Assembly (NCBI GenBank): GCA_963704165.1
Contig: CAVPHD010000007.1
Coordinates: 128,001 to 192,000, forward strand
Origin: an uncultured delta proteobacterium
Lineage (GTDB): Bacteria > Myxococcota_A > UBA9160 > SZUA-336
Reading direction: 5' to 3'
DNA: 64,000 nt
A program made the position numbers and the translations under genes. Positions 42,689-63,532 of this stretch are shown one piece after another (position 1 is the first letter of the stretch; each line of letters starts with the position of its first letter). The notes under the pieces are model-generated. The model saw only the letters and a program-made list of their open reading frames with translations, was not told the origin of the DNA and searched no databases.

Positions 42689-42720
42689 GTTTCGACGCTA
42701 GCCCCCGAAGTGAGTGGCAC

Positions 42721-42738
42721 CTATGATGCTCATCATAG
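42721..42738. promoter_or_regulatory. Palindromic operator CTATGATG-CT-CATCATAG
   Basis: Perfect 8-bp arms in a divergent intergenic region; a near copy occurs at 52891. Confidence 0.75.
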
Positions 42739-42791
42739 CCAGCGATCGGCGCGGCTGCTGCGTTGGCGAGACGCACAAGGAGGAACGGGCC

Positions 42792-44144
42792 ATGACGATG
42801 GATTCCGAGACGCGAAAGCTGCTCGAAGAGGCCTGGTCGACGCCACTCTTCGAGTCGATCTTCACCCGACGCTCGCGGCGCTTCGGATTGGGCATGGAGA
42901 TCCGGCACGGGCCCAATGCGTTCAAGTCGCAGGCCGAGCCGCTCCCCCTCTCGTTCGAGGAGGAAGCGCTGCTCTGCATGGCGGCGACGGGGATGTCCGG
43001 CATGAACCTCGCCGACATGCCCCACACGCGGAAGGAAGAGCTCGCTCCGGGAGAGGTCTGGGACGGCAACTGCAACACGATGCTCGAATACTCGGGCCGG
43101 ACGTTCCCGAGCCCCTGCGGATCGCACGCCACGGAGCTCTTCTACGCCAACGACGAGGGCACCTACGTCGTCAAGATCCGCGGCACGCACCCCGAGCGGA
43201 TGCAGGAAATCTCACGGATGGACGATCTCGAGAAGCTCGTCGCGGTCTTCTCCGATCGGCGCGTGCAGATCTCGAGCGAGCGGATCGATCTGCCGCACTC
43301 CTCGCCGGCCTTCATGTCGTTCAACACCTGGAATGCGAACCAGCCGGGCACGACGCTCTTCATGCCGGTCTGTGACGTCACCGAGGAGCTGATCAACGGG
43401 CTCATGCTCTTCCTCGAGCAAGGGAACTACCCCGTCGACATCGAGGACGGCATGAAGCCGCTCGGTTGCGAGAAGTGGGTGAAGCAGGGGCTGGCGACGA
43501 TCCCGGTGCCGTACCAGAGCCTCGAGCCGCTCGTCGCCTTCGGCGCGTCGAGCGTCGAGGTCGGCTTCATGTCGCAGAATCTGCTGCTCGCCGAGACGGC
43601 GCTCGGCCTGGGCGGTTGGCCGTTCGGCGGTTTCAACGCGATGATGGCGCTGGGTGGCACACCTTTGTGTCGCGGTCTCGGTTTCCGCTTCGAGACGGCG
43701 GAGCACGGACCGCTCGCGGGGTTTCCATATCCGATCGGGAAGGACGGCGTATTCGAGACCCACCATCCCTACTACTTCAACGGATCGATCGACGACGCCG
43801 TCGATGACGTGATCGAGCGGAAGTGGGGCTCGGCTGGGATCTTCCATCCCTCGAACGCGGAGAACGCGCCGTACAAGAAGCCGGGGCAGATGGAGGTCGC
43901 CATCCCGCGCACGGATCCGGCGATCGTGCAGTGCACGAAGGACATCCTGAACGCGGTCTGGCGCAAGTGGGGGCGCTTTCCGGCGTTCGCCGACCCGTGC
44001 CTGCTGACGGTGATGGTGCAGGCGCAGCATCTCGACTGCGATTTCTACGACGCCTACTACCGCGACGGCGCCTACACCGAACGGCATCGCCGACACCTCG
44101 AGCGCTGGCACTCGAAGTCGCGTCGCGCGCTGCGAGCCGCCTGA
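42792..44144 (+). CDS. Large hypothetical protein with a nitroreductase/SagB-like fold
   Basis: IFTRRSRRF, RTFPSPCG and EVGFMSQNLLLAETALGLGG match the FMN-binding segments of the nitroreductase superfamily. Confidence 0.6.
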   Translation: MTMDSETRKLLEEAWSTPLFESIFTRRSRRFGLGMEIRHGPNAFKSQAEPLPLSFEEEALLCMAATGMSGMNLADMPHTRKEELAPGEVWDGNCNTMLEYSGRTFPSPCGSHATELFYANDEGTYVVKIRGTHPERMQEISRMDDLEKLVAVFSDRRVQISSERIDLPHSSPAFMSFNTWNANQPGTTLFMPVCDVTEELINGLMLFLEQGNYPVDIEDGMKPLGCEKWVKQGLATIPVPYQSLEPLVAFGASSVEVGFMSQNLLLAETALGLGGWPFGGFNAMMALGGTPLCRGLGFRFETAEHGPLAGFPYPIGKDGVFETHHPYYFNGSIDDAVDDVIERKWGSAGIFHPSNAENAPYKKPGQMEVAIPRTDPAIVQCTKDILNAVWRKWGRFPAFADPCLLTVMVQAQHLDCDFYDAYYRDGAYTERHRRHLERWHSKSRRALRAA

Positions 44145-44376: not shown

Positions 44377-44611
44377 CGGGGCCGCTGGGCGACGGGATCC
44401 GAGCTGGCATCCGGGTGCCGACCGGAGTGATCCGATGTGCAATAGTGCCCGGCGCCGTGCGGGCTCTTCCGCTCGCCGGGTAGGGACGTAAAGTGACGAT
44501 TCGATGATCTGGCTGAGGCACCTTGGCACGGCGTTGTGCTCATCGGTCAGCTCCAAGGTCGGCGACGGCAGGCCCTCTGCTGGCCCGTCGCTTGCACACC
44601 GGCCGGGCGGA

Positions 44612-46059
44612 ATGTCGTCAGGTGACGCCGGGATCCGTGCATCGCTAGAGCTACGTGCGGCTTCGCGCCGCTGGCTCGCCCTGTCGCTCGTCGTGCTCGT
44701 GCTCGCGGGACTGTTCGCGCTTGCAGTCGTCGTCGGCCGCATGCCGCCCTTCGATCGCTTCGTGACCGACCCCGTCTTCTTCAAGCGCTGTCTGATCGCT
44801 CACGTCAACATGGCGCTCGTCGCGTGGTTCTACTCGATCACGGCCGCGCTCTTCTTCCTGCTCCCATCGCAGGGCCGAGCGGGCTGGCTCGCCCGGCACT
44901 CGGTCCACGTCGCTGGGTTGGGAATCGGGATGCAGCTGGCCGGCGCGGGGGTCCCCGGCGCGGCTCCCTTGCTCTCGAACTACATTCCGACGCTCGATCA
45001 CTGGGTCTTCCAGTCCGGTCAGCTGGTCTTCGGGCTCGGCGTCCTGCTGAGCTTCGTGGACCGCCGATTCCTTCCCGGTGCCGAGCCGCTCGTCGTCGTG
45101 CCGCTGCCGCCCGGCGTGGTCAGCGGTCTTCGCGCAACGCGCGCGGCACTCCTGCTCGCCGCGCTCACGTTCGGCTTCACCTGGTTGCGGGCGCCGAGTG
45201 GTCTCGAACCGGCCGTGTACGCGGATCTGCTCGTGTGGGGACTCGGGCACGTTCTTCAGCTCGTGTGCGCGCTCGCGATGATCTCGCTCTGGCTCTGGCT
45301 GCTCGAGACCGTTCTCGGCGAGGCGCCCGTGAGCGCGCTCGCGTCGCGCTGGCTCTTTGCGGCGCTGGTTCTGCCGTGGTCGTTCGCGCCCGTGTTCGCG
45401 CTCGCGGGCACGAGCAGCATGGCGTACCAGGTCGGCTTCACCGAGCTCATGCGTTGGTGCATCGTTCCGGTCGTCGCGATCTTTCTGATCTTGTCCCTTT
45501 CCAAGGTGGTGCGGCGTGGCGCGCAGGCCGGATCTCCGCCGCGTCGCTTTCGGACCCACATCTTTCGGCTATCCTCGTCAGCGGGTTCCTGACTGTGCTC
45601 GGATTCGGGCTCGGCGCGGCAATCCGCGGGCAGAGCACGATGGTCCCAGCTCACTATCACGCCTCGGTCGGAGCGATCACGGTTTCGTTCATGGCGGGAA
45701 GCTACCTGTTGCTTCCGGTGCTCGGTCTGAAGCTTCCCGAAGGGTGGTTGCGCCGCGTGAGAGCTTGGCAACCCACCGTCTACGGAACTGGAATGCTCGT
45801 GCTCGCCGGTGGCTTCGCGCTCGCGGGCGCGCACGGGATGGGGCGCAAGATCTACGGAGCCGAGCAGGCCGCGCGCGGCACGGCAGAGACGCTGGGTCTG
45901 GGAATGATGGGTATCGGAGGCTTCGCCTCGATCGCGGGGGGAATCATGTTCCTCGCCGTCGTCGGCGTCGCTTGGATGAGTCGTGTCGGAGTCGGGTCGG
46001 CGTCGGAAAAGCTGGCCGCGTCGAGGAGGTTGGACTATGGCGCCGAAGGACCCGGGTGA
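44612..46059 (+). CDS. Degenerate heme-copper oxidase subunit I-like membrane protein (frameshift near 45515)
   Basis: About 12 hydrophobic segments; LIAHVN, WGLGHVLQ, PAHYHASVG and GMGRK parallel the subunit I motifs, but the HH pair is absent. Confidence 0.65.
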
Positions 46060-46192
46060 CATCCACCCGATTCAGAAACTCATGGACAATCCGTGGCTGC
46101 TGCTTTTTCTCGGGGTGCTCATCCCGACCGTCTCATTCACCCTCTGGGCGTGGTACGAGCTGTACGTACTGCCGCACGCAACACTGCCCTGA
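46037..46192 (+). CDS. Single-TM small subunit (subunit IIa-like)
   Basis: IQKLMDNPWLLLFLGVLIPTVSFTLWAWYEL, immediately before subunit II. Confidence 0.7.
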   Translation: MAPKDPGDIHPIQKLMDNPWLLLFLGVLIPTVSFTLWAWYELYVLPHATLP

Positions 46193-46207: not shown

Positions 46208-46735
46208 ATGAGTATCCATCCGCCCGCGGCAGGCTGGTTCAAGGCACCCCACGGAGCCGAGCGGCTCTGGATCGGGCTCGCGATGTGTTGGTGCTTGATC
46301 ATGTCGATCGCGATGCCGTACTGGCACTTCTACGGCAAGCAGAACAGCACGGGCGAGGCCTACCGGGTCGCGCCCGGGGACTTCGCGCAGCGCGTGCAGC
46401 GCTTCGTTTCCACCAATCAAGTGGGCGAGCTGAACGGTGTTCCCATCGTGCAGCCGGCGCCCGGCGGGGACGCGTATCTGCAGGCCCAGATGTGGTCCTG
46501 GTTTCCGGTCCTGAAGCTCAAGAAGGGGCAGACCTACCGGGTGCACGTCTCGTCGATCGACCTGCAGCATGGCTTCTCGCTTCACCCACTGAACATGAAC
46601 TTCCAGGTCCTTCCGGGCTACGACCACGTGCTCACCCTGACTCCGACGAGCTCGGGGGAGTTCACGATCATCTGCAACGAGTTCTGCGGCATTGGCCACC
46701 ACGCGATGGCCGGGCGCATCCTCGTCGAGGAGTAG
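46208..46735 (+). CDS. CuA-containing subunit II of a B-family-derived heme-copper enzyme
   Basis: One TM helix; DLQHGFS and CNEFCGIGHHAM CuA ligands. Confidence 0.93.
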   Translation: MSIHPPAAGWFKAPHGAERLWIGLAMCWCLIMSIAMPYWHFYGKQNSTGEAYRVAPGDFAQRVQRFVSTNQVGELNGVPIVQPAPGGDAYLQAQMWSWFPVLKLKKGQTYRVHVSSIDLQHGFSLHPLNMNFQVLPGYDHVLTLTPTSSGEFTIICNEFCGIGHHAMAGRILVEE

Positions 46736-46739
46736 AGTG

Positions 46740-48494
46740 ATGACGACCACCACGATTGGCGCAGACGTGACTCTCGGCGAGACAGCCGGAAACCACCCGC
46801 GGGGGGAGGTGCGGGCCTGCGACACGACTGGCCTGCCGATCTGCCTGACCGCGCAGCGCTTCATCAAGCTTCACGCGGTCGTCGCCGTCGTCTTTCTGCT
46901 GATCGGTGGCGTTGCCGCGATTCTGATCGGGCTCACTCGCTGGCCGGCCGTGCACCTTCTTCCCGCGGATTGGTACTACCGGCTGGTGACGCTCCACGGT
47001 CTGGACATGCTGATCGTGATGATCCTGAACTTCGAGATCGCGATTCTCTATTTCGCGGGATCGTTCCTGCTGAACAGCCGGCTGTTCTCGAAGACGCTGT
47101 CGTGGATCACGTTCGCGCTGATGCTGATCGGCGCGGTGATGTGCAACGCGACGGTGCTGATGGGCAAGGCCGATGTCATGTACACGTCGTACGTACCGCT
47201 TCGCGCAGACCCGCAGTTCTATCTGGGATTGATCCTGTTCACCGTCGGGACGCTGCTGGGCGTGATCAATTTCTTCGGCACGGTCTACATCGCCAAGCGC
47301 GACCACACCTACGAGGGCTCCGTGCCGCTCGTCACGTTCGGTGCGATTGCCGCGGCGATCATCGCGGTCGCTACGCTCCTGCACGCGGCCACGACGATGA
47401 TCCCGACCTATCTGTGGTCGATCAACGTGCTCTCCTCGATCGACCCGGAGTGGTACCGCGTCACGTGGTGGGGACTCGGGCACATGAGCCAGCAGGTGAA
47501 CGTCTGCGCGATGGTCTCGGTCTGGTATCTGCTCGGTACTCTCACGGTCGGCTCGAAGCCTCTGTCCGAGGCCGTCTGCAGGGGCGCGTTCCTGCTCTAC
47601 ATCCTGTTCATCAACCTCGCCTCGGCCCACCACGAGTTGGTCGATCCTGGCGTCAGCGCGAGCTGGAAGATCTGGAACACCTCGTACGCGATGTACCTCG
47701 CGGTGCTTGCGTCGATGATCCACGGCTTCACGGTCCCGGCGTCGATCGAGGTGGCGATGCGGGCGAAGGGCTTCAAGCGCGGTCTCTTCGGCTGGCTGGC
47801 CAACGCGCCGTGGTCCAACCCGGGCTTTTCGGGGTTCTTCCTGTCGCTGGTGATCTTCGGCTTCGGCGGCGGCATCACCGGAGTCACCCTCGGGACGCAG
47901 CAGATCAACATCATGGCGCACAACACGCTGCGCATCCCGGGCCACTTCCACGTCACCGTCGTCGGGGGCACGGCGCTCGCGTTCATGGCGGTGACGTACT
48001 ACGTCGTGCCGCTGGTCTTCCAACGTGAGTTCTACGCGAAGGCGTTGTGCCGTCTGCAGCCGTACCTCTTCGGGATCGGAATCACGACGATGGCGATCGG
48101 GATGTCGTTCGCCGGCTCCTACGGTGTTCCGCGCCGCCACTGGGACGTCGAGTTCAGCGGCTCGCCGTTCGCGCCCGGATTCGATTCCGGTGCGCACGTG
48201 ATGCTCGGCCTGCTCGGCGTCGGCGCCGTCATCGCCTTCACGGCTGTGCTTCTCTTCGTCCTGCTCGTGGTCGCGGCCGTGTTCTTCGGCCGTTCGAATG
48301 CGGGCCGTCCGATGGAGCCCTGGCACGTCGAGCGTGGCGTGACCGCCGCGCCGAGGTCCTCGCACGGCGCGGGCGAGGAGGAAGACCACCGCACGCCGGG
48401 AACACTGGTGCTCGTGGGCGTGTTTCTGGCGTCGTTCGCGGTCTACTACTTCGCGAACTGGCTCTGGCTCTCGGACGTCTGGCACGTTCGATGA
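46740..48494 (+). CDS. Heme-copper oxidoreductase subunit I, B-family-derived, probable eNOR-type nitric oxide reductase
   Basis: TLHG, WWGLGHMSQQVN (Gln at H+4 instead of Tyr), SAHH, GHFH, GVPRR. Confidence 0.85.
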   Translation: MTTTTIGADVTLGETAGNHPRGEVRACDTTGLPICLTAQRFIKLHAVVAVVFLLIGGVAAILIGLTRWPAVHLLPADWYYRLVTLHGLDMLIVMILNFEIAILYFAGSFLLNSRLFSKTLSWITFALMLIGAVMCNATVLMGKADVMYTSYVPLRADPQFYLGLILFTVGTLLGVINFFGTVYIAKRDHTYEGSVPLVTFGAIAAAIIAVATLLHAATTMIPTYLWSINVLSSIDPEWYRVTWWGLGHMSQQVNVCAMVSVWYLLGTLTVGSKPLSEAVCRGAFLLYILFINLASAHHELVDPGVSASWKIWNTSYAMYLAVLASMIHGFTVPASIEVAMRAKGFKRGLFGWLANAPWSNPGFSGFFLSLVIFGFGGGITGVTLGTQQINIMAHNTLRIPGHFHVTVVGGTALAFMAVTYYVVPLVFQREFYAKALCRLQPYLFGIGITTMAIGMSFAGSYGVPRRHWDVEFSGSPFAPGFDSGAHVMLGLLGVGAVIAFTAVLLFVLLVVAAVFFGRSNAGRPMEPWHVERGVTAAPRSSHGAGEEEDHRTPGTLVLVGVFLASFAVYYFANWLWLSDVWHVR

Positions 48495-49430
48495 CTCGCG
48501 CTGCTCAGAGTGGAAGAGCCGCTCGATTCTTCGACGGACGGCAGCTTTCCCGCATTTGCGCTCGGCGTCCTCGTGTTCTGGGAGATCCTGCTCCTGGCGA
48601 TGCTGATCGCCCCGATCGGGCGAATCGGGTCTGCGGGGGTTCGCCGACGAGTTCCGCATCTGGTGCTTCGGGTACGACCCGTCGACCGGGCGCATGAATC
48701 CCGGATTGGTGATGGCGATGACGAGCCCGCCGATCGTGATCGGGTCCGGTGCTCGCGCTGGTCTGGTGGCAGCCGCTGCGGGAGCTGATGGTGCGCCGCC
48801 GCGGCTGGCTGCGGCCGTGCGTGGCGAGCGCGCTCACCGTCGCCATCGCCGCGTCGGGGCTCGTGGCGCTCGCTCGAGAGCCCGCCCGAGAGGATCTGCC
48901 CTTTCCAGCGGAGTCTCTGCGCACGGAGATACGCTCCCCCGAGCTGCGGCTCGTGAATCAGAACGGCGATACGGTCGATCTCGCCGAGCTGCGCGGAAAT
49001 GTCGTGGTGCTCACGGCCATATACTCGTCGTGTCCGCTGAGCTGCCCATTGATCCTCGGTCAGGCGAAGGCGGCGATCGCCGACGTCCCGGCGACGCTGC
49101 GCGGCGATCTGCAGGTGATCGCGGTCAGCATGGATCCCGAGCAGGATTCGCCCGAGGTACTCGCGGCGCTCGCTCGCCAGCACGCGGTCGAGGCTCCGGA
49201 GTACTCACTGGTCACGGGCGATCCGGTCGAAGTCGAGCGCATCCTCGACGAGCTCGGGATCTCACGCACGCGGGATCCCGGAGACCGGAGTGATCGATCA
49301 CGCGAATCTCTTCTTGCTCGTCGATCGCGCTGGCCGGATCGCCTACCGCCTCACGCTCGGCGAACGGCAACAGCGCTGGCTGACATCGGCGCTGGAGTTC
49401 CTGCTTCGTGAGGAGCCCGGTGGAGCGTGA
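48491..49430 (+). CDS. SCO1/SenC copper chaperone with an extended N-terminal membrane region (several frameshifts)
   Basis: YSSCPLSCP (CxxxC), SMDPEQDSP and IDHANLFLLVD; the N-terminal TM segments lie in shifting frames. Confidence 0.82.
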
Positions 49431-51510
49431 TGCCATCGGCTTGGCCTCGGAGGTCGCCCATGGTGGCGAGGCCAAGGTCCGCGGCGAGGGTGTGCTGCGC
49501 GCACTCGAGCGACCGTTCCTCGCCTTCGATCGCGTGCTCTCTCGCGCGCTACCGGATGCGCTGAACCCGTTTCTCCAGACGGGGGCCGTGGCGGTGACGG
49601 CGACCCTCGTCGCCACGATCACCGGCGTGCTGCTGCTGTTCTGGTACCGGCCGAGCGTGCACCTGGCGTACTCCTCGGTGGCGGCGATGTCCGACTCCGC
49701 GTGGAGCGCGGGCCTGCTGCGCTCGCTGCATCGCTACAGCTCAGATGCCGCGCTCTTCTTCGCTCTCGTGCACGCTGCGCGGCTCTTCTTCGAGCGACGC
49801 TTCGCCGGTGCGCGCTGGGTTGCCTGGGTGACCGGAGTGGCCTCGCTCCTGGTGGTCTGGGTTCTCGGCTGGACCGGCTACTGGCTGGTCTGGGACGTGC
49901 GCGCGAAGTACGTCGCGGTAGAGACGGCGCGAGTTCTCGACGTGCTGCCGATTTTCGCCGATCCGATGGGGCGCTCGTTCCTCTTCGAGGAGGGAATCAA
50001 CTCTCTCCTGTTCTTCGTCGTGTTCTTCTTCCACATGCTCGCCCCGCTGGCCCTCGCGTTCCTGCTCTGGCTGCATCTGACCCGAACCGCGCGCGCGCGC
50101 TTTCTCACGCGCCTGCCGATGACGATCTGGGTCGTCGGGACGCTCTCACTGCTCTCTGTGGCGTATCCGGCGACGAACGCCGAGCCCGCTCGAATGACCG
50201 CACGCGCCGAGTCGTTCGGCATGGACTGGTGGTACCTGTTTCCGCTCGCGCTCGGGCAGCGGCTCTCGGGCGGCGCGATCTGGGCGGTCTGCCTGATGGG
50301 CGGAGCGCTCGCCGTCTCCGCGCCGTGGACGCTGCGCAAGCGCGTCGGCCGGAGCGCGAAGGTCGATCCTGCGCGCTGCAACGCCTGCGAGCAGTGTTAC
50401 GTGGACTGTCCCTACGAGGCGATCTCGATGATCCCGCGCGAGAACCCCGAGAAACGGAAGAGGTACGCGCTCGAGGCGTTCGTAGATCCCGCGAAGTGCG
50501 TCTCGTGCGGGATCTGTGTCGCTTCGTGCAACTCGATCGGCACGGACCTTCCGGGATTCCCGCTTCGCGACCAGCGACAGCGCGTTTCGACCTGGCTCGA
50601 CCAGGTGAAGGCGAGCGGCGAGAGTGCGGGTGTCGCGTTCGTCTGCGCGCAGTCGGCCGCAGCCGGGCTCGAGATCGAATCGGAGACGGGATTGTGCAGT
50701 GAGCTGCCCGGCTGGCGCGTTCTCGAGGTCCCTTGTGCCGGATGGGTGCACTCGATGTCGATCGAACTCGCCTTGCGACGGGGAGCCAGGAAAGTCCTGA
50801 TCGCGAGCTGTCCGCCCGGGTCGTGTCACTTCCGTGAAGGACCGGAATTCCTCGATCAGCACCTGGCGGGAACTCGGCCCCCGTCCATCCGCGAGAAGTA
50901 CGTCCCCGGGGATGCCGTCGAGGTCGTCTGGTTCGGCCGCGGAAGCGAGCGAGAGCTCGTTCGCGCGGCGAGAGGCGCGCTCGCGGACGAGCGTCGGCCA
51001 GCGGCCGCGGTGCCCGGACGATCCCTTGCCGGCGTCGCATCGGTCGTCCTCGCGGTCGCCGTCAGCGCCATCATCGGTGTTGTCAGCGATTGGGGCTACG
51101 CCGCGCACGCGTCCCCGGGAGCGGAGCTCGTGGTCACGTTCAAGCACCCCGGAGAGCGAAGCGAAGTCTGCCGCGAGCGGACACCGGAAGAGCTCGAGCG
51201 ACTCCCGCAGCACATGCGCGAGGCGAAGGTCTGCGAGCGGGCGCGTGCTCCCGTGCGTCTGCGTGTGAACGTCGACGGCGCACACCGGATCGCACAGACC
51301 TACGCTCCGAGCGGGATCTGGAGCGACGGCTCGAGCGTCGCGGTGGTACCGTTGCGCGTCACGCCGGGGGTGCACGAGATCCGGGTCGAGATCGGAGATA
51401 GTCACGATCCCACGGAATGGACCCATGTCAGCGAGCAGACGCTCGAGTTCGACGAGAGCGTCCGGCGGGTGATCGCGTTCGATCGATCGTCCGGATTCAA
51501 GGTGCACTAG
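49408..51510 (+). CDS. Cytochrome b (b6-like N-terminal) - 2x[4Fe-4S] ferredoxin - MvhD/FlpD [2Fe-2S] fusion with a C-terminal TM and soluble domain (start uncertain)
   Basis: TGVLL, LHRYSS, VHAAR, W.TG, GWTGYWLVWD, FFHM, WLHL, DWWY; CNACEQCYVDCP, CVSCGICVASC; FVC...VPCAG...SCPPGSCHFREG. Confidence 0.85.
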   Translation: MRSPVERDAIGLASEVAHGGEAKVRGEGVLRALERPFLAFDRVLSRALPDALNPFLQTGAVAVTATLVATITGVLLLFWYRPSVHLAYSSVAAMSDSAWSAGLLRSLHRYSSDAALFFALVHAARLFFERRFAGARWVAWVTGVASLLVVWVLGWTGYWLVWDVRAKYVAVETARVLDVLPIFADPMGRSFLFEEGINSLLFFVVFFFHMLAPLALAFLLWLHLTRTARARFLTRLPMTIWVVGTLSLLSVAYPATNAEPARMTARAESFGMDWWYLFPLALGQRLSGGAIWAVCLMGGALAVSAPWTLRKRVGRSAKVDPARCNACEQCYVDCPYEAISMIPRENPEKRKRYALEAFVDPAKCVSCGICVASCNSIGTDLPGFPLRDQRQRVSTWLDQVKASGESAGVAFVCAQSAAAGLEIESETGLCSELPGWRVLEVPCAGWVHSMSIELALRRGARKVLIASCPPGSCHFREGPEFLDQHLAGTRPPSIREKYVPGDAVEVVWFGRGSERELVRAARGALADERRPAAAVPGRSLAGVASVVLAVAVSAIIGVVSDWGYAAHASPGAELVVTFKHPGERSEVCRERTPEELERLPQHMREAKVCERARAPVRLRVNVDGAHRIAQTYAPSGIWSDGSSVAVVPLRVTPGVHEIRVEIGDSHDPTEWTHVSEQTLEFDESVRRVIAFDRSSGFKVH

Positions 51511-51520
51511 GAGAGAACCC

Positions 51521-52858
51521 ATGACGACGAGCGCCCAGCTCATCGCGACTCTCGCGCCGCGCCTCTCGCGCCTTCGCGACTACGTCGATCTGACGCGTCC
51601 CGGCATCCTCGTCGGCGTGCTGCTGACGGCAATGCCGGGACTCGCGCTGGACCCGGTCTCGCGCCCGGACATCGGCACGGTTCTCCTGGTGTTGCTCGGA
51701 GTTGCGCTCGTCGGGGGCGGATCGAGCGCGCTCAATGCATGGTGGGAGCGCGACGCCGATGCGCGCATGGCGCGAACACGCGGTCGGCCGCTGCCATCGG
51801 GGCGCCTGCCCGCGCCGCGCGCGCTGATCTTCGGAGTCGCGTCCTCGATTGCCGGTCTGGCCGCCCTCGGGCTGGCCGGTGGTTGGCTTCCCGCTGCGAT
51901 CGGCGCAGCGACGCTTCTTCACTACCTGCTCGTCTACACCGTCTGGCTGAAGCCGCGCAGCGCATGGAATACGCTGGTCGGCGCCTTGGCGGGATCCACG
52001 GCACCGCTGATCGCCGATGCGGCCGTACACGGACGCGTCGGCGTCTGGGGCCTGTCCCTTTTCGCGATCGTGCTCTTCTGGCAGCCACCGCATGTCTTCG
52101 CGATCGCCTTGTACCGGCGCGAGGAGTACGCCGCCGCGCCGTTTCGGATGCTGCCGGCGGTCGTCGGCGACGTCGCGACGCGACGCTTCAGTCTCGCCTT
52201 CGCGTTCGCGCTGATCCCGATCTCGATGCTGCCGTTCTTCGGGGGTGTGTTCGGCGCTGGCTACGCGGTGGTGGCCGCGCTCGGGGGCGTCGCGTTCAGC
52301 GCTTCGATCGTCGCTTCGATGCGGGCGCGAACGGATGCCGCCGATCGGCGCGTGTTCATCGTGTCGCTGTCGTACCTCGCAGCTCTGTTCGGGGCGATGA
52401 TGCTCGAGATCGGAGCCAGAGGAGTGGGAATGGGCCCGCGCGAGCTGCTACCGCACGTGAACGGCGCGCTCAACGCCGCGATCACCGCACTCCTGATCGC
52501 CGCATTCGTCGCGATCCGCCGGGGCCGACGCGAGACCCACCGACGGCTGATGGTCTCGGCCGTATCTCTCGGGACCGCGTTCGTCGGCCTCTACGTCCTC
52601 CAGACCGCGCTGCTCGGCCACCAGCGCTTCCCCGGAGACGATTGGGTGCGAACGCTCTTCCTGTCGGTGCTGACGACGCACACGATCCTCGCGGTCGTCG
52701 TCGTCCCGCTGGTGGCCCGCGCTCTGTTTCTGGGGCTTCGAGAGCGCTTCGTCGAGCATCGCCGCATCGTCCGCGTGGCCTATCCCATCTGGCTCTACGT
52801 CGCGCTGACGGGGCTGTTCATCTACTGGATGAACAACTTCGTGCGACCGGGATCCTAG
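51521..52858 (+). CDS. ctaB: Protoheme IX farnesyltransferase (heme o synthase) fused to a C-terminal DUF420-like domain
   Basis: LTRP, N...ERDADARMARTRGRPLPSG, YT.WLKP, FWQPPH..A...REEY; then LPHVNGALN, HRRLM, HTILA, HRRI...YPIWLYV.LTG. Confidence 0.9.
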   Translation: MTTSAQLIATLAPRLSRLRDYVDLTRPGILVGVLLTAMPGLALDPVSRPDIGTVLLVLLGVALVGGGSSALNAWWERDADARMARTRGRPLPSGRLPAPRALIFGVASSIAGLAALGLAGGWLPAAIGAATLLHYLLVYTVWLKPRSAWNTLVGALAGSTAPLIADAAVHGRVGVWGLSLFAIVLFWQPPHVFAIALYRREEYAAAPFRMLPAVVGDVATRRFSLAFAFALIPISMLPFFGGVFGAGYAVVAALGGVAFSASIVASMRARTDAADRRVFIVSLSYLAALFGAMMLEIGARGVGMGPRELLPHVNGALNAAITALLIAAFVAIRRGRRETHRRLMVSAVSLGTAFVGLYVLQTALLGHQRFPGDDWVRTLFLSVLTTHTILAVVVVPLVARALFLGLRERFVEHRRIVRVAYPIWLYVALTGLFIYWMNNFVRPGS

Positions 52859-56254: not shown

Positions 56255-57871
56255 ATGCGCGAGCAGAGCCCGCTGATCCTCGGTGATCTGGTCCGGATCC
56301 GTGCGAACGAGAAGCCCGATCTCGACGTCCTGACGTTCGAGCACCTCTCGCTCGACGAGGGCCGCACGCCGGACGAGGTGCGGACCTACTCCGGGCTCGC
56401 GACCCATGCGAACCGGATCGCAGCCACTCTCATCGCGCGCGGGCTCGCGCGCGGTGACCGCTTCGGGTTGATGATGCGAAATCACCCGGAGTACGTGGAG
56501 ACGATGACCGCCGCCTCGATCACGGCGACGGTCTTCGTGCCGATCGACCCACGCACGCGTGGCGAGAAGCTCGCGTTCTTCCTCGGTCGGGCGGGCTGCA
56601 AGGGCATCGTCTGTGCGGACTATTGCCTGCCCGCCATCGAAGCCGTGCGCGGCTCGCTCCCCGACCTCGAATGGATCCTGGCGCTCGACACGGGCGAGGG
56701 CGACGACGCCGTGCCTCTGTCCTCGGTGAAAGGGGTGGAGTCGCTGCGCGAGGTCTTGTCGAAGCCGGTGCCGGGCGTCGATTCGCGCCTCGTCGACGCG
56801 AACGATCCCCTGCAGATCATCTACACCTCCGGCACCACGGGAGATCCGAAGGGCGTGGTGTTTCCGAACGCGCGATTCGGCGGCTTCGCGATGCTCGGCG
56901 CATTGCTCGGCTATCAGGCCGACGAGCGGCCCTACACGGGTCTCTCGCTCACCCACGGAAACGCCCAGGCCGTGACGCTGGGTCCATCGCTGTCGATGGG
57001 GCTGCGCGCGGTCTTCAGTCGCAGGTTCACGAAGTCGCGGCTCTGGGACGTCTGTCGCTTGCACGGGTGCACCACGTTCTCTCTGCTCGGCGGCATGTCG
57101 ACCGCGATCTACAGCGAACCGCTGCGGAAGAACGACGCCGACAACCCCGTGCGCAAGGTGATCAGCGCGGGCATGCCCGCTGCGATCTGGGCGTCGTTCG
57201 AGAAGCGCTTCAACGTGAAGATCTTCGAGTGGTACGGCGCCGTCGAGGGCGGACTCGCATTCAAGCCGATTGGCGAGGGTCCGATCGGCTCGTTCGGGAA
57301 GTCGGCGCCGGGGCTCGACATGCGCGTGCTCGACGACAACGACCGCGAGTGCGCGCCCGGCGAGATCGGCGAGATCTGCTCCCGCCCGTCGAGCGGCGCG
57401 TCGGCCGAGGTGGAGTACTTCGAGAACGCCGAAGCGTCCGCGCAGAAGACCCGTGGCGGCTGGCTGCGCAGCGGTGACATGGGTTCGCGCGACGCGGAGG
57501 GGTGGTTCTTCTTTTCGCATCGAAAGGGCGGCGGCATCCGTCACAACGGCGACTTCGTGAATGCCGGATTCGTCGAGAAGCTGATCGCCGAGCAGCCGAG
57601 CGTCTCCGATGTCTTCGTCTACGGCGTGCCGGCCGCATCTGGATCGCCCGGCGAGAAGGACGTGGTCGCCGCGATCGTCCCGCAATCCGGCGCGACGTTC
57701 GACCCGGCCGCGATCTATGCCGCGTGCCGCGCCGGTCTCGAGTCGAATTTCGTTCCGTCCTACCTTCAGGTCGTCGACGAGATTCCGAAGACCGCGTCCG
57801 AGAAGCCGCAGGAGCGATTTCTGCTCGATCGCTTCGCACCCGATGCGAAGAATGTCTACGTCGAGCGGTAA
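56255..57871 (+). CDS. Acyl-CoA synthetase (CaiC-like AMP-binding enzyme)
   Basis: YTSGTTGDPKG, WYGAVEG, WLRSGD, IPKTASEK. Confidence 0.92.
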   Translation: MREQSPLILGDLVRIRANEKPDLDVLTFEHLSLDEGRTPDEVRTYSGLATHANRIAATLIARGLARGDRFGLMMRNHPEYVETMTAASITATVFVPIDPRTRGEKLAFFLGRAGCKGIVCADYCLPAIEAVRGSLPDLEWILALDTGEGDDAVPLSSVKGVESLREVLSKPVPGVDSRLVDANDPLQIIYTSGTTGDPKGVVFPNARFGGFAMLGALLGYQADERPYTGLSLTHGNAQAVTLGPSLSMGLRAVFSRRFTKSRLWDVCRLHGCTTFSLLGGMSTAIYSEPLRKNDADNPVRKVISAGMPAAIWASFEKRFNVKIFEWYGAVEGGLAFKPIGEGPIGSFGKSAPGLDMRVLDDNDRECAPGEIGEICSRPSSGASAEVEYFENAEASAQKTRGGWLRSGDMGSRDAEGWFFFSHRKGGGIRHNGDFVNAGFVEKLIAEQPSVSDVFVYGVPAASGSPGEKDVVAAIVPQSGATFDPAAIYAACRAGLESNFVPSYLQVVDEIPKTASEKPQERFLLDRFAPDAKNVYVER

Positions 57872-57887
57872 CCGGGCCGAGAGCGAG

Positions 57888-59288
57888 ATGTCTCGTCCGC
57901 CGATCGAGCTCGACCCGGAGCACGCCGAAGCCATCTTGATGCGCTACGCGGGCACCGGGCCGCGCTACACGAGCTACCCGACCGCGCCGGTCTGGACCGA
58001 AGCGTATGGTGCGGGAAGCTTCGAGGACGACCTGGCCGCGAGCTCACCGGGAGCCGAGCTCTCGGTCTACGTCCACGTTCCGTTCTGCACCAGCCTCTGT
58101 CACTTCTGCGCGTGCAATCGCGTGATCACGCGGAAGGCCGAGCTCCCGGCGCGATACCTCGACACGATCGAACGCGAGATCGGACGCGTGCGAGCGGCGC
58201 TCCCCGGCGAACGACCGGTCGTGCAGCACCACTGGGGTGGAGGAACGCCGACCCATCTCGATCCGGCGCAGGTCAAGCGGCTCTTCCGCGCCGTGAACGA
58301 CGCGTTTCCGGCGGTGGAGGGCGCGGAGATCTCGCTCGAGGTGGACCCCCGCGTCACCGGCGACGCTCACATCGATGCGCTGCGCGAATGCGGATTCAAC
58401 CGCATCTCGCTCGGCGTGCAGGACTTCGCGCCGCGCGTGCAGGCTGCGATCCATCGCGAGCAGAGCCCGGAGCTGACCGGGCGACTCGTGGAACGCGCAC
58501 GCGCGAGCGGCTTCGAGAGCGTGAACCTCGACCTGATCTACGGACTGCCGTTTCAGACCCTCGAATCGACTTCCCAGACGCTCGACGAGGTGCTCGCGAT
58601 CGCTCCGGATCGGATCGCGCTCTACGCGTACGCGCACGTCACGTGGGTTGCGAAGCAGCAGCGCGGTTTCGAGCGACAGGACCTGCCGGCTCCCGGGCTG
58701 CGGTTGCGAATTCAGCTCGCCGCGATCCGGCGTCTGCTCGAGGCGGGCTACGTGTACATCGGAATGGACCACTTCGCGCGACCCGACGATGCGCTCGCCG
58801 ACGCGGTCCGCGAGCGAACGCTGCGGCGCAACTTCATGGGCTACACGACGCGCGCGGGGGTCGACATGATCGGCCTGGGTCCGAGCGCGATCAGCGAACT
58901 TTCCCGGAGCTACGCGCAGTCCGTTCGGGAGCTCGAGCCCTGGCACGAGGCGATCGACTCCGGTCGCTTGGCGACGCTGCGCGGGCATCGGCTCTCGCGC
59001 GACGACGTCGAGCGGCGCTGGGTGATCGGCGAGATCATGTGCCACGAGGAGGTCCGCGCGGCCGAGTTCCGCGAGCGCTTCGGTCTCGAATTCGCGCAGC
59101 GCTTCGCGCGGGAACGTGCGGCGCTCGAGCCTTTCGTCGCCGACGGGCTCGTCGCGTTCGAACCCGAAGGCGGACTGCGCGTGACGCCGCTCGGGCGGCT
59201 GGTTCTGCGGAACGTGGCGATGGTCTTCGACGCGTATCTCGAAGGACAGCGCTCTGGAGATCGCCCGCTCTTCAGCCAGACCGTCTGA
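57888..59288 (+). CDS. hemN: Oxygen-independent coproporphyrinogen III oxidase
   Basis: GPRYTSYPTA, YVHVPFCTSLCHFCAC, HWGGGTP, DLIYGLP, IGMDHFA, LRRNFMGY, FS.TV. Confidence 0.95.
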   Translation: MSRPPIELDPEHAEAILMRYAGTGPRYTSYPTAPVWTEAYGAGSFEDDLAASSPGAELSVYVHVPFCTSLCHFCACNRVITRKAELPARYLDTIEREIGRVRAALPGERPVVQHHWGGGTPTHLDPAQVKRLFRAVNDAFPAVEGAEISLEVDPRVTGDAHIDALRECGFNRISLGVQDFAPRVQAAIHREQSPELTGRLVERARASGFESVNLDLIYGLPFQTLESTSQTLDEVLAIAPDRIALYAYAHVTWVAKQQRGFERQDLPAPGLRLRIQLAAIRRLLEAGYVYIGMDHFARPDDALADAVRERTLRRNFMGYTTRAGVDMIGLGPSAISELSRSYAQSVRELEPWHEAIDSGRLATLRGHRLSRDDVERRWVIGEIMCHEEVRAAEFRERFGLEFAQRFARERAALEPFVADGLVAFEPEGGLRVTPLGRLVLRNVAMVFDAYLEGQRSGDRPLFSQTV

Positions 59289-63061: not shown

Positions 63062-63532
63062 ATGCGCGGCGACCCGGCAGTGATCGAGGCGTTGAACGGC
63101 ATCCTGACCGCCGAACTCACCGCGATCAACCAGTACTTCATCCACTCGAAGATGTGCCGCAACTGGGGCTTCCTCCGGCTCGCCAAGCACAACCACCACG
63201 AATCGATCGAAGAGATGAAGCACGCCGATTCGGTCATCGAGCGGATCCTCTTTCTCGACGGCCTGCCGAACATGCAGCGCCTCGGAGCGATTCGCGTGGG
63301 TGAGACCGTGCCCGAGCAGTTCAAGGTCGATCTCGCTCTCGAGCTGGACGCGGTCAAGCGCTACAACGCGGCGATCGCGCTCTGCGCGGAGAAGAGCGAC
63401 GCGGGAACCCGCGAGATGCTCGAGGACCTGCTGAAAGACGAAGAGAGCTCGGTCGATTGGCACGAGACGCAGCTCGATCTGATCGAGAAGATCGGCGCGG
63501 AGCTCTATCTGGCGGAGCAGCTCGGGGAATAG
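63062..63532 (+). CDS. bfr: Bacterioferritin
   Basis: [30 protein letters not shown] (heme Met), [11 protein letters not shown]. Confidence 0.95.

Follow-up and report, generated by a model that had tools for sequence, protein, structure and literature searches.

What does a protein that joins a cytochrome b to a ferredoxin, an MvhD-like domain and a membrane-anchored tail do inside the operon of a nitric oxide (NO) reductase? The question is raised by a 64,000-nucleotide stretch of DNA (the window) from an uncultured delta proteobacterium (Myxococcota_A; assembly GCA_963704165.1, contig CAVPHD010000007.1, positions 128,001 to 192,000 of the forward strand), in which a gene for such a fusion protein lies between the sco and ctaB-DUF420 genes of an eNOR operon. 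A model that saw only the DNA letters and their open reading frames (the first-pass annotation) had singled it out as a candidate electron-input module. Real and widespread, the fusion is an accessory protein, so far uncharacterised, that accompanies the main eNOR clade; it combines known parts anew and stands outside the bc, Hdr, CcoG and NosR families. As to its function, we tentatively favour, at somewhat under an even chance, a low-flux reductant wire that would serve SCO-dependent assembly or reactivation of the eNOR metal centres.

Architecture of the fusion protein

The frame at 49408-51510 (+) is open over 700 codons, and residue numbers are counted from 49408 throughout. The more likely start is the GTG at 49420, since an identical database protein has 696 residues, positions 49408-49413 read GAGGAG, and the upstream sco gene, translated in the same frame as its relatives, stops at 49428-49430. 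The gene and its parts are as follows.

49420..51510 (+): fusion gene for cytochrome b, 2[4Fe-4S], MvhD-like, transmembrane and periplasmic His-Met parts; likely start GTG 49420, 696 residues
49540..50082 (+): cytochrome b6-like four-helix bundle, residues 45-225 (Pfam; alignments to b6)
50113..50334 (+): helices E and F of subunit IV type, including the ef loop (weak profile match; Foldseek)
50359..50544 (+): 2[4Fe-4S] ferredoxin domain, predicted cytoplasmic, resembling the HdrA C-terminal ferredoxin domain (Pfam; NCBIfam)
50632..50874 (+): MvhD/FlpD-like domain with Cys413, Cys443, Cys468 and Cys473, predicted [2Fe-2S] (Pfam; alignment to solved MvhD chains)
51019..51087 (+): seventh membrane helix, residues 538-560, anchor of the periplasmic domain (model)
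51091..51507 (+): beta-sandwich, predicted periplasmic, extended by the hairpin Cys588-x-PxH602M603R-x-Cys609 (models)

The single 700-residue frame of four parts described in the first-pass annotation is confirmed by the open frame and by Pfam, in which all three domains proposed for a search were found above the curated cut-offs: Cytochrome_B at residues 45-225 (E 7e-18), Fer4 twice within 318-379 and FlpD at 409-489 (E 2.6e-11). The four His, the two CxxCxxCxxxC motifs, the MvhD/FlpD-like Cys pattern and the transmembrane segment followed by a soluble domain with two Cys (Cys588 and Cys609) had likewise been read correctly; the subunit IV-like helices and the conserved PxHM(R) motif of the tail had been overlooked. 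The possibility that the fusion is a frameshift artefact is rejected in view of its many homologs and of a same-genus relative with which it is colinear (83%). By contrast, the assembly does contain frameshifts in two neighbours, the scaffold gene and sco. Homologs number 1038 proteins at E 1e-10 (7996 candidates scored) and 595 cluster representatives at E 1e-30, partial matches counted in, and all four parts are present in 116 of 149 new representatives among the matches listed. Defluviimonas sp. SAOS-178 and Pelagicoccus enzymogenes are among the organisms with matches, as candidate cultured carriers. An AlphaFold2 model of the protein (mean pLDDT 81.5, pTM 0.74) finds its best structural matches, by Foldseek, in the cytochromes b of b6f and bc1.

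Conservation was read from an alignment of 231 rows, consisting of representatives and locus proteins that are not independent of one another. Among the rows having a residue there, His108 (225/225), His122 (226/226), His209 (229/229) and His223 (231/231) are invariant; His108 and His209 are the predicted ligands of the periplasm-side heme, and His122 and His223 those of the cytoplasm-side heme. The heme ci Cys is absent in the alignment to b6. Residues ~236-309 resemble helices E-F of b6f subunit IV in a weak profile match (E 0.02), Foldseek aligns the model to a full cytochrome b over ~290 columns, and this part of the protein would consist of six helices, A-F, of the bc/b6f type. According to the same weak alignment, the ef loop reads DWWY where bc and b6f proteins have PEWY; no conserved Glu is found at the PEWY position across the 231 rows, Asp273 of the loop is kept in 223 of them, and the cd helices and the WD motif are retained. 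Helix F is predicted to end in the cytoplasm, which would place the iron-sulfur domains inside, beside heme bH, and the seventh helix would carry the last domain outside. No PF00033 match other than the fusion protein occurs in the source genome (84% complete). A motif search detected a Rieske motif in none of 55 eNOR loci of at least 12 kilobases (kb), and the four Rieske matches of the source genome all lie on contigs other than that of the operon, which agrees with the earlier proposal of a Rieske-independent protein. A subunit of a bc complex is rejected, there being no Rieske gene at the loci and no PEWY.

All eight ferredoxin Cys are near-invariant (228-230 of 230 rows), and an HdrA2 model from NCBIfam matches residues 316-486 (E 7e-18). 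The four MvhD Cys are complete in 176 of 231 rows and incomplete in the other 55, the fourth being absent in many; Opitutaceae-type rows have none of the four, and of 120 matches listed around an Opitutaceae-type query, one carries a PF02662 annotation. In the homologs P0167, P0208 and P0272, the last of which occurs on three contigs, both iron-sulfur domains are absent and the cytochrome b is joined straight to the anchor and the His-Met domain, forms that make up 2 of the same 120 listed matches. Some lineages have lost the MvhD Cys and, rarely, all iron-sulfur domains, and the cytochrome b and His-Met domain persist. The cofactors predicted for the fusion protein are two hemes and at most three iron-sulfur clusters.

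The anchor and the periplasmic domain form a separate gene in many (split) operons. The His-Met pair is kept in 89 of 92 distinct periplasmic domains, 79 of which also have the flanking Cys pair, and the His-Met tip is a candidate metal site. The tail has no Pfam match and falls in unnamed clusters of the ESM Atlas, a Foldseek search with the periplasmic domain returned nothing at E 0.001, and the closest fold (Z 10.1, rmsd 2.4, 90 aligned, 10% identity) is a generic beta-sandwich. The single-sequence model of the domain is middling (pLDDT 70), and novelty of the fold is therefore unsupported.

Linkage to eNOR across genomes

The fusion gene is a fixed part of the operon of the main eNOR clade, to which its linkage is near-obligate. 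Among 301 genomes of the source phylum, 34 have eNOR subunit I, and in 34/34 the fusion lies on the same contig. The fusion is found in 36 of the 301 genomes and a fragment of it in one; the two carriers without eNOR have the gene at contig ends, and the fragment has no eNOR within 12 kb. A further 25 genomes of this set give single-domain matches only. Of ten additional eNOR genomes, nine have the fusion and the remaining one is cut by a contig end, and among 251 genomes from the phylum of an Opitutus record eNOR and the fusion occur in the same 7. The co-occurrence with eNOR that the first-pass annotation wished to see examined thus holds in 34/34 and 7/7 eNOR genomes, and contradicts the possibility that the homologs do not accompany heme-copper enzymes. 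Seven Tyr-type B-family loci are all without the fusion. A metagenome scan, which retained the 80 best matches to the main eNOR clade, yielded the fusion at 53 loci, including 20/20 of those with 3 kb on both sides; the 27 loci without it are all short on one side.

Within the 59 eNOR loci that are well flanked (2.5 kb on each side), the fusion is present in 57, SCO in the same 57 (56 by profile, L046 by Pfam), the scaffold gene in 27 and ctaB in 28. The two loci without the fusion, which are also without SCO, belong to plasmids of Thermomicrobium roseum (L047) and Thermus thermophilus (L167). Both have a Gln-type subunit I (HGAQQ); L047 carries a CtaG-cupredoxin fusion and CtaA-CtaB, and L167 adjoins nirS. 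All fusion-bearing loci fall inside one subunit I clade (support 97), with the Thermus and Thermomicrobium loci outside it, in a quick tree of 85 rows from which about two thirds of the metagenome rows were left out and which carries a long-branch warning; eNORs of Rhodothermus, Halobacteria and Chloroflexota were not knowingly sampled. The eNOR of L012, from a record titled Enterobacterales, groups with Myxococcota rows; its phylum sample overlaps that of the window, and the label is probably wrong.

A possible role in metal-centre assembly and its rivals

As a reductant wire, the fusion protein would receive electrons from carriers in the cytoplasm (or from quinol) by way of its iron-sulfur clusters and pass them along a [4Fe-4S] - heme bH - heme bL chain, as its homology to cytochrome b suggests, so that they would reach the periplasmic His-Met site after the two b hemes. 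There they would serve the membrane-bound SCO of the operon in building or re-reducing eNOR metal centres, with Cu for CuA as the first target and the metal of the binuclear site as a second candidate; the outward direction, the low flux and the target are proposed by analogy with CcoG, TlpA/PcuC and NosR.

This role is favoured because the fusion and SCO share the same 57 loci, whereas the scaffold and ctaB do not track the fusion, because the two loci that lack the one also lack the other (L047 having its CtaG fusion and CtaA-CtaB instead), and because the sco stop overlaps the fusion start. It is also favoured because bulk quinol oxidation is already covered by alternative complex III (ACIII), whose marker ActD is found in 52 of 55 carrier genomes and of which the source genome has an ACIII-like cluster, and because CuA assembly requires reduced thiols and a source of Cu(I) (PMC6669012), PCuAC being rare in carriers (PF04314 in 4 of the 55 genomes, the motif in 2/55 loci). 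The retention of the His-Met pair, the absence of the Qo Glu and the precedent of CcoG, a [4Fe-4S] membrane protein described as a cupric reductase for cbb3 assembly (PMC8267372), are further grounds for it. The eNOR of Rhodothermus marinus, reported to be purified with heme a-type only (PMC11214002), may be counted on the same side, its sequence being absent from the loci compared here.

Several considerations weigh against an assembly role, the case for which is built throughout from genomic context and analogy. Carrier genomes also build A-family CuA oxidases, and 264 of the 301 phylum genomes show neither eNOR nor the fusion; CuA assembly as such is therefore independent of the fusion, and an eNOR-specific need must be assumed. 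The ActD, CtaA and PCuAC frequencies come from carrier genomes alone, so that the low frequency of PCuAC lacks a baseline from non-carriers. Furthermore, fusion, SCO and eNOR may have been co-inherited as one clade block, which would amount effectively to one gain and two contrast loci. A protein of seven helices and five cofactors is large for a maturation job, and His-Met would supply two metal ligands only. In Hdr, the chain from ferredoxin to MvhD is described as running towards flavin (PMC12350162), which would point inward here, and NosR, the nearest architectural analogue, is reported to be unneeded for Cu-centre assembly (PMC7660919).

That same report describes NosR as a possible donor to NosZ rather than an assembly factor, and NosR has the same plan of iron-sulfur clusters inside and a redox domain outside, which lends some support to a respiratory donor. 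In such a donor, which we regard as unlikely but worth keeping in view, quinol would be oxidised at a remodelled periplasm-side pocket and its electrons passed from heme bL over the His-Met metal to CuA in turnover, the His-Met metal replacing the Rieske protein plus cytochrome c1. The operon has no conserved cytochrome c (a CxxCH frame lies within 6 kb in 14/55 loci), and the retained cd helices, WD motif and ef loop with Asp273 would suit this function. The homologs without iron-sulfur domains also fit a membrane donor, but they are rare among the matches listed and their operons are unseen. Against a donor stand the loss of the PEWY Glu and the ACIII marker of nearly all carriers, in view of which the fusion protein is probably not the bulk quinol oxidase; the near-invariant ferredoxin Cys would be superfluous for a simple quinol dehydrogenase. 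Feeding turnover from the cytoplasm would, by our reasoning, cancel the charge separation of the proton channel proposed for eNOR, and the enzyme is reported to be active in vitro with TMPD/ascorbate (PMC11214002). Of the two options named in the first-pass annotation, reductant supply for Cu or heme maturation fits better and catalytic electron input to the CuA-containing reductase less well, because the ACIII marker is present in 52/55 carriers and SCO in 57/57 fusion loci.

The tandem of ferredoxin and MvhD domains, which corresponds to the HdrA C-terminus plus MvhD, and the bc-type scaffold of the protein, a bifurcating fold, bring to mind a bifurcating supercomplex, a reading that we hold to be improbable and that is close to the supercomplex proposed for Ferrigenium (bioRxiv 10.64898/2026.01.22.701106). 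One quinol electron would pass to eNOR and the other inward over heme bL, heme bH, the [4Fe-4S] pair and the [2Fe-2S] cluster to a cytoplasmic acceptor, so that NO reduction would drive the making of low-potential reductant. Hdr electrons are described as going from the ferredoxin domain to the [2Fe-2S] cluster (PMC12350162), and cytochrome b would here replace hydrogenase as the upstream donor. However, the source genome, at its 84% completeness, has no HdrA match near the cut-off and no second FlpD, neither an HdrA-type gene nor an NADH-binding paralog recurs among the neighbours of the sampled loci, the [2Fe-2S] ligands are incomplete in many rows and absent from Opitutaceae-type rows, and there is neither a Rieske-like mobile acceptor nor a PEWY Glu. 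Inward transfer from the b hemes to low-potential clusters, against the membrane potential, would also be steeply uphill by our own estimate. The idea that the MvhD part wires the protein in the usual way, between hydrogenase or formate dehydrogenase and HdrA, is weakened by the lack of HdrA and of another FlpD in the genome and by the loss of its Cys in Opitutaceae-type proteins. Decidedly improbable is the fuller version in which the protein is a Rieske-free descendant of complex III, whose His-Met copper takes over the position of the Rieske cluster by docking at the former Qo face and whose quinol is bifurcated between the CuA of eNOR and an Hdr-derived cytoplasmic iron-sulfur arm.

An O2-independent substitute or reductase partner of heme a synthase for eNOR deserves next to no weight: CtaA is present in the Thermomicrobium operon without the fusion and in none of the fusion-bearing loci, ctaB is often adjacent, and heme a made under anoxia is noted as a puzzle (bioRxiv 10.64898/2026.01.22.701106), but 53 of the 55 carrier genomes have CtaA elsewhere (by a one-gene query that may miss distant CtaA), which disfavours replacement of CtaA, ctaB occurs in only 28 of the 59 loci, and the four His fit two ordinary bis-His hemes. 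What probability remains is left to sensing or repair.

Operon neighbours and source genome

The operon runs in the order scaffold, IIa, CuA subunit II, subunit I, sco, fusion gene and ctaB-DUF420. The genes flanking the fusion are as follows.

44504..46059 (+): "scaffold" gene for a degenerate membrane protein of COX1-like type, with a frameshift near 45514 in the assembly
46037..46192 (+): small membrane subunit, 51 residues (comparison with related loci)
46208..46735 (+): eNOR subunit II with the complete CuA ligand set (Pfam; NCBIfam)
46740..48494 (+): eNOR subunit I, His248-M-S-Q-Gln252 with Gln at the cross-link Tyr position (Pfam)
48491..49430 (+): copper chaperone SCO, preceded by a membrane domain at its N-terminus; the gene is frameshifted in the assembly, and its stop overlaps the fusion start
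51521..52858 (+): fusion of CtaB (heme o synthase) and DUF420 (Pfam; NCBIfam)

The scaffold has no Pfam match and, of the two subclades of eNOR that were sampled, occurs in one only. The 51-residue protein we take to be IIa-like, on the pattern of B-family operons. The subunit II residues H121, C156, E158, C160, H164 and M167 are invariant in 74 rows. Replacement of the cross-link Tyr of subunit I by Gln is described as diagnostic of eNOR (PMC8756737); the subunit I of the window has this Gln, and control B-family loci show Tyr. At 47628-47636 it reads His-His-Glu, compared with His-His-Leu in 110 of 119 other matches, a difference that is probably real, the same Glu being found in the same-genus relative. 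In sco, one frameshift near 49279 is demonstrated, and the 5' part holds one or more others. The unannotated N-terminal membrane domain of SCO, which in the ESM Atlas falls in the SCO cluster only, has an invariant Cys58 (RxxCFG; 113/113 rows) besides the CxxxC/His copper site, and this Cys might provide a third thiol for copper or redox chemistry; L086:9058-9990 is a further locus of this SCO.

Upstream of the operon, a frame of 476 residues at 42714-44144 has no Pfam or NCBIfam match and is 82-88% identical in two related loci. At 5-11 kb downstream lie hemN (O2-independent coproporphyrinogen oxidase, NCBIfam; 57609-59288, +) and a gene that by eye is bacterioferritin-like (63062-63532, -). 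Elsewhere, a multicopper-oxidase (NirK-like) family gene is found near the operon in 11 loci, the scanned example (L096:939-2432) having a cytochrome c domain; at L103:4723-6420 and L119:13201-14823, eNOR is followed a few kb downstream by another, more distant homolog of heme-copper subunit I; and a hemerythrin gene (L046:15568-15972) follows the split fusion genes of a Defluviimonas plasmid operon. Besides its ACIII-like cluster, the source genome holds an A-family oxidase, nirS-like, nirK and CtaA genes and a broken nosZ, clade II-like and spread over several frames. A second COX1 gene of reductase size (~725 residues) is probably qNOR, a label drawn from its length. The nosZ, second COX1, nirS-like, nirK and ACIII-like genes occupy C4:190690-192489, C4:207464-226131 and C5:202621-209906.

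Relation to known systems and significance

Compared with the bc1 and b6f complexes, the fusion shares the four-helix diheme bundle with its four His, the cd helices, helices E-F and the ef loop, but lacks the heme ci Cys and a gene for a Rieske protein or cytochrome c1/f, its loop is of the DWWY type where theirs is PEWY, and helices G-H are replaced by the iron-sulfur domains and the periplasmic domain. With the HdrA C-terminus plus MvhD (HdrA2-type) it has in common 2[4Fe-4S] followed by the MvhD fold with four Cys, although it lacks the FAD domain, its operon has no HdrBC, Mvh or Fdh partner, and the Cys are lost in some lineages. CcoG is likewise a membrane protein with ferredoxin-type motifs that is linked to heme-copper enzyme assembly and an SCO-type chaperone, but it is described as cytoplasm-facing (PMC8267372), whereas the fusion is built on cytochrome b; no CcoG/FixG match occurs among the Pfam hits or the best 25 of 32 NCBIfam hits. 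NosR is also a dedicated accessory of a copper enzyme of denitrification, with cytoplasmic 2[4Fe-4S], a membrane core and a periplasmic domain (PMC7660919); the fusion differs in having no FMN-binding domain or match to that family, and membrane hemes and His-Met instead of flavin.

The closest precedent is Ferrigenium straubiae, whose eNOR operon likewise has a cytochrome b and iron-sulfur gene together with sco1, heme o synthase and the scaffold; a 2026 preprint reports two such genes in eNOR operons, seen in the proteome, and judges them rather unusual and possible Ferrigenium markers (bioRxiv 10.64898/2026.01.22.701106). The text consulted names neither the MvhD nor the His-Met domain, and its gene 2878407323 may belong to the fusion family. 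The family described here, by contrast, is present in almost every eNOR operon sampled from the main clade. For eNOR itself, Table 1 of PMC11214002 gives 547 GTDB genomes and 2,709 metagenome records; the R. marinus enzyme is the only one shown to reduce NO but not O2 and to contain heme As (PMC11214002); that paper and its preprint mention CtaA, and the text and supplements searched contain no such fusion gene. One protein with cytochrome b6, iron-sulfur and FlpD domains is tabulated in PMC8756737. A literature search, outside which most subscription papers fell, returned no functional study of the fusion protein and no account of eNOR maturation or electron supply. To call the system undescribed, as was done at first, is slightly too strong in view of the Ferrigenium genes.

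The fusion, together with its special SCO, is an obvious missing component of the eNOR operon, and its gene is what to include in eNOR expression and a marker of functional operons. The question of donor versus assembly is testable with one deletion. If the gene of the preprint belongs to the same family, the view of such genes as Ferrigenium markers is corrected. In this protein a cytochrome b of complex III is re-used in the absence of its Rieske protein and combined with part of the arm of heterodisulfide reductase; should bifurcation without a Rieske protein prove true, it would be a new energy-coupling supercomplex, in which NO reduction would yield low-potential reductant across many bacterial phyla.

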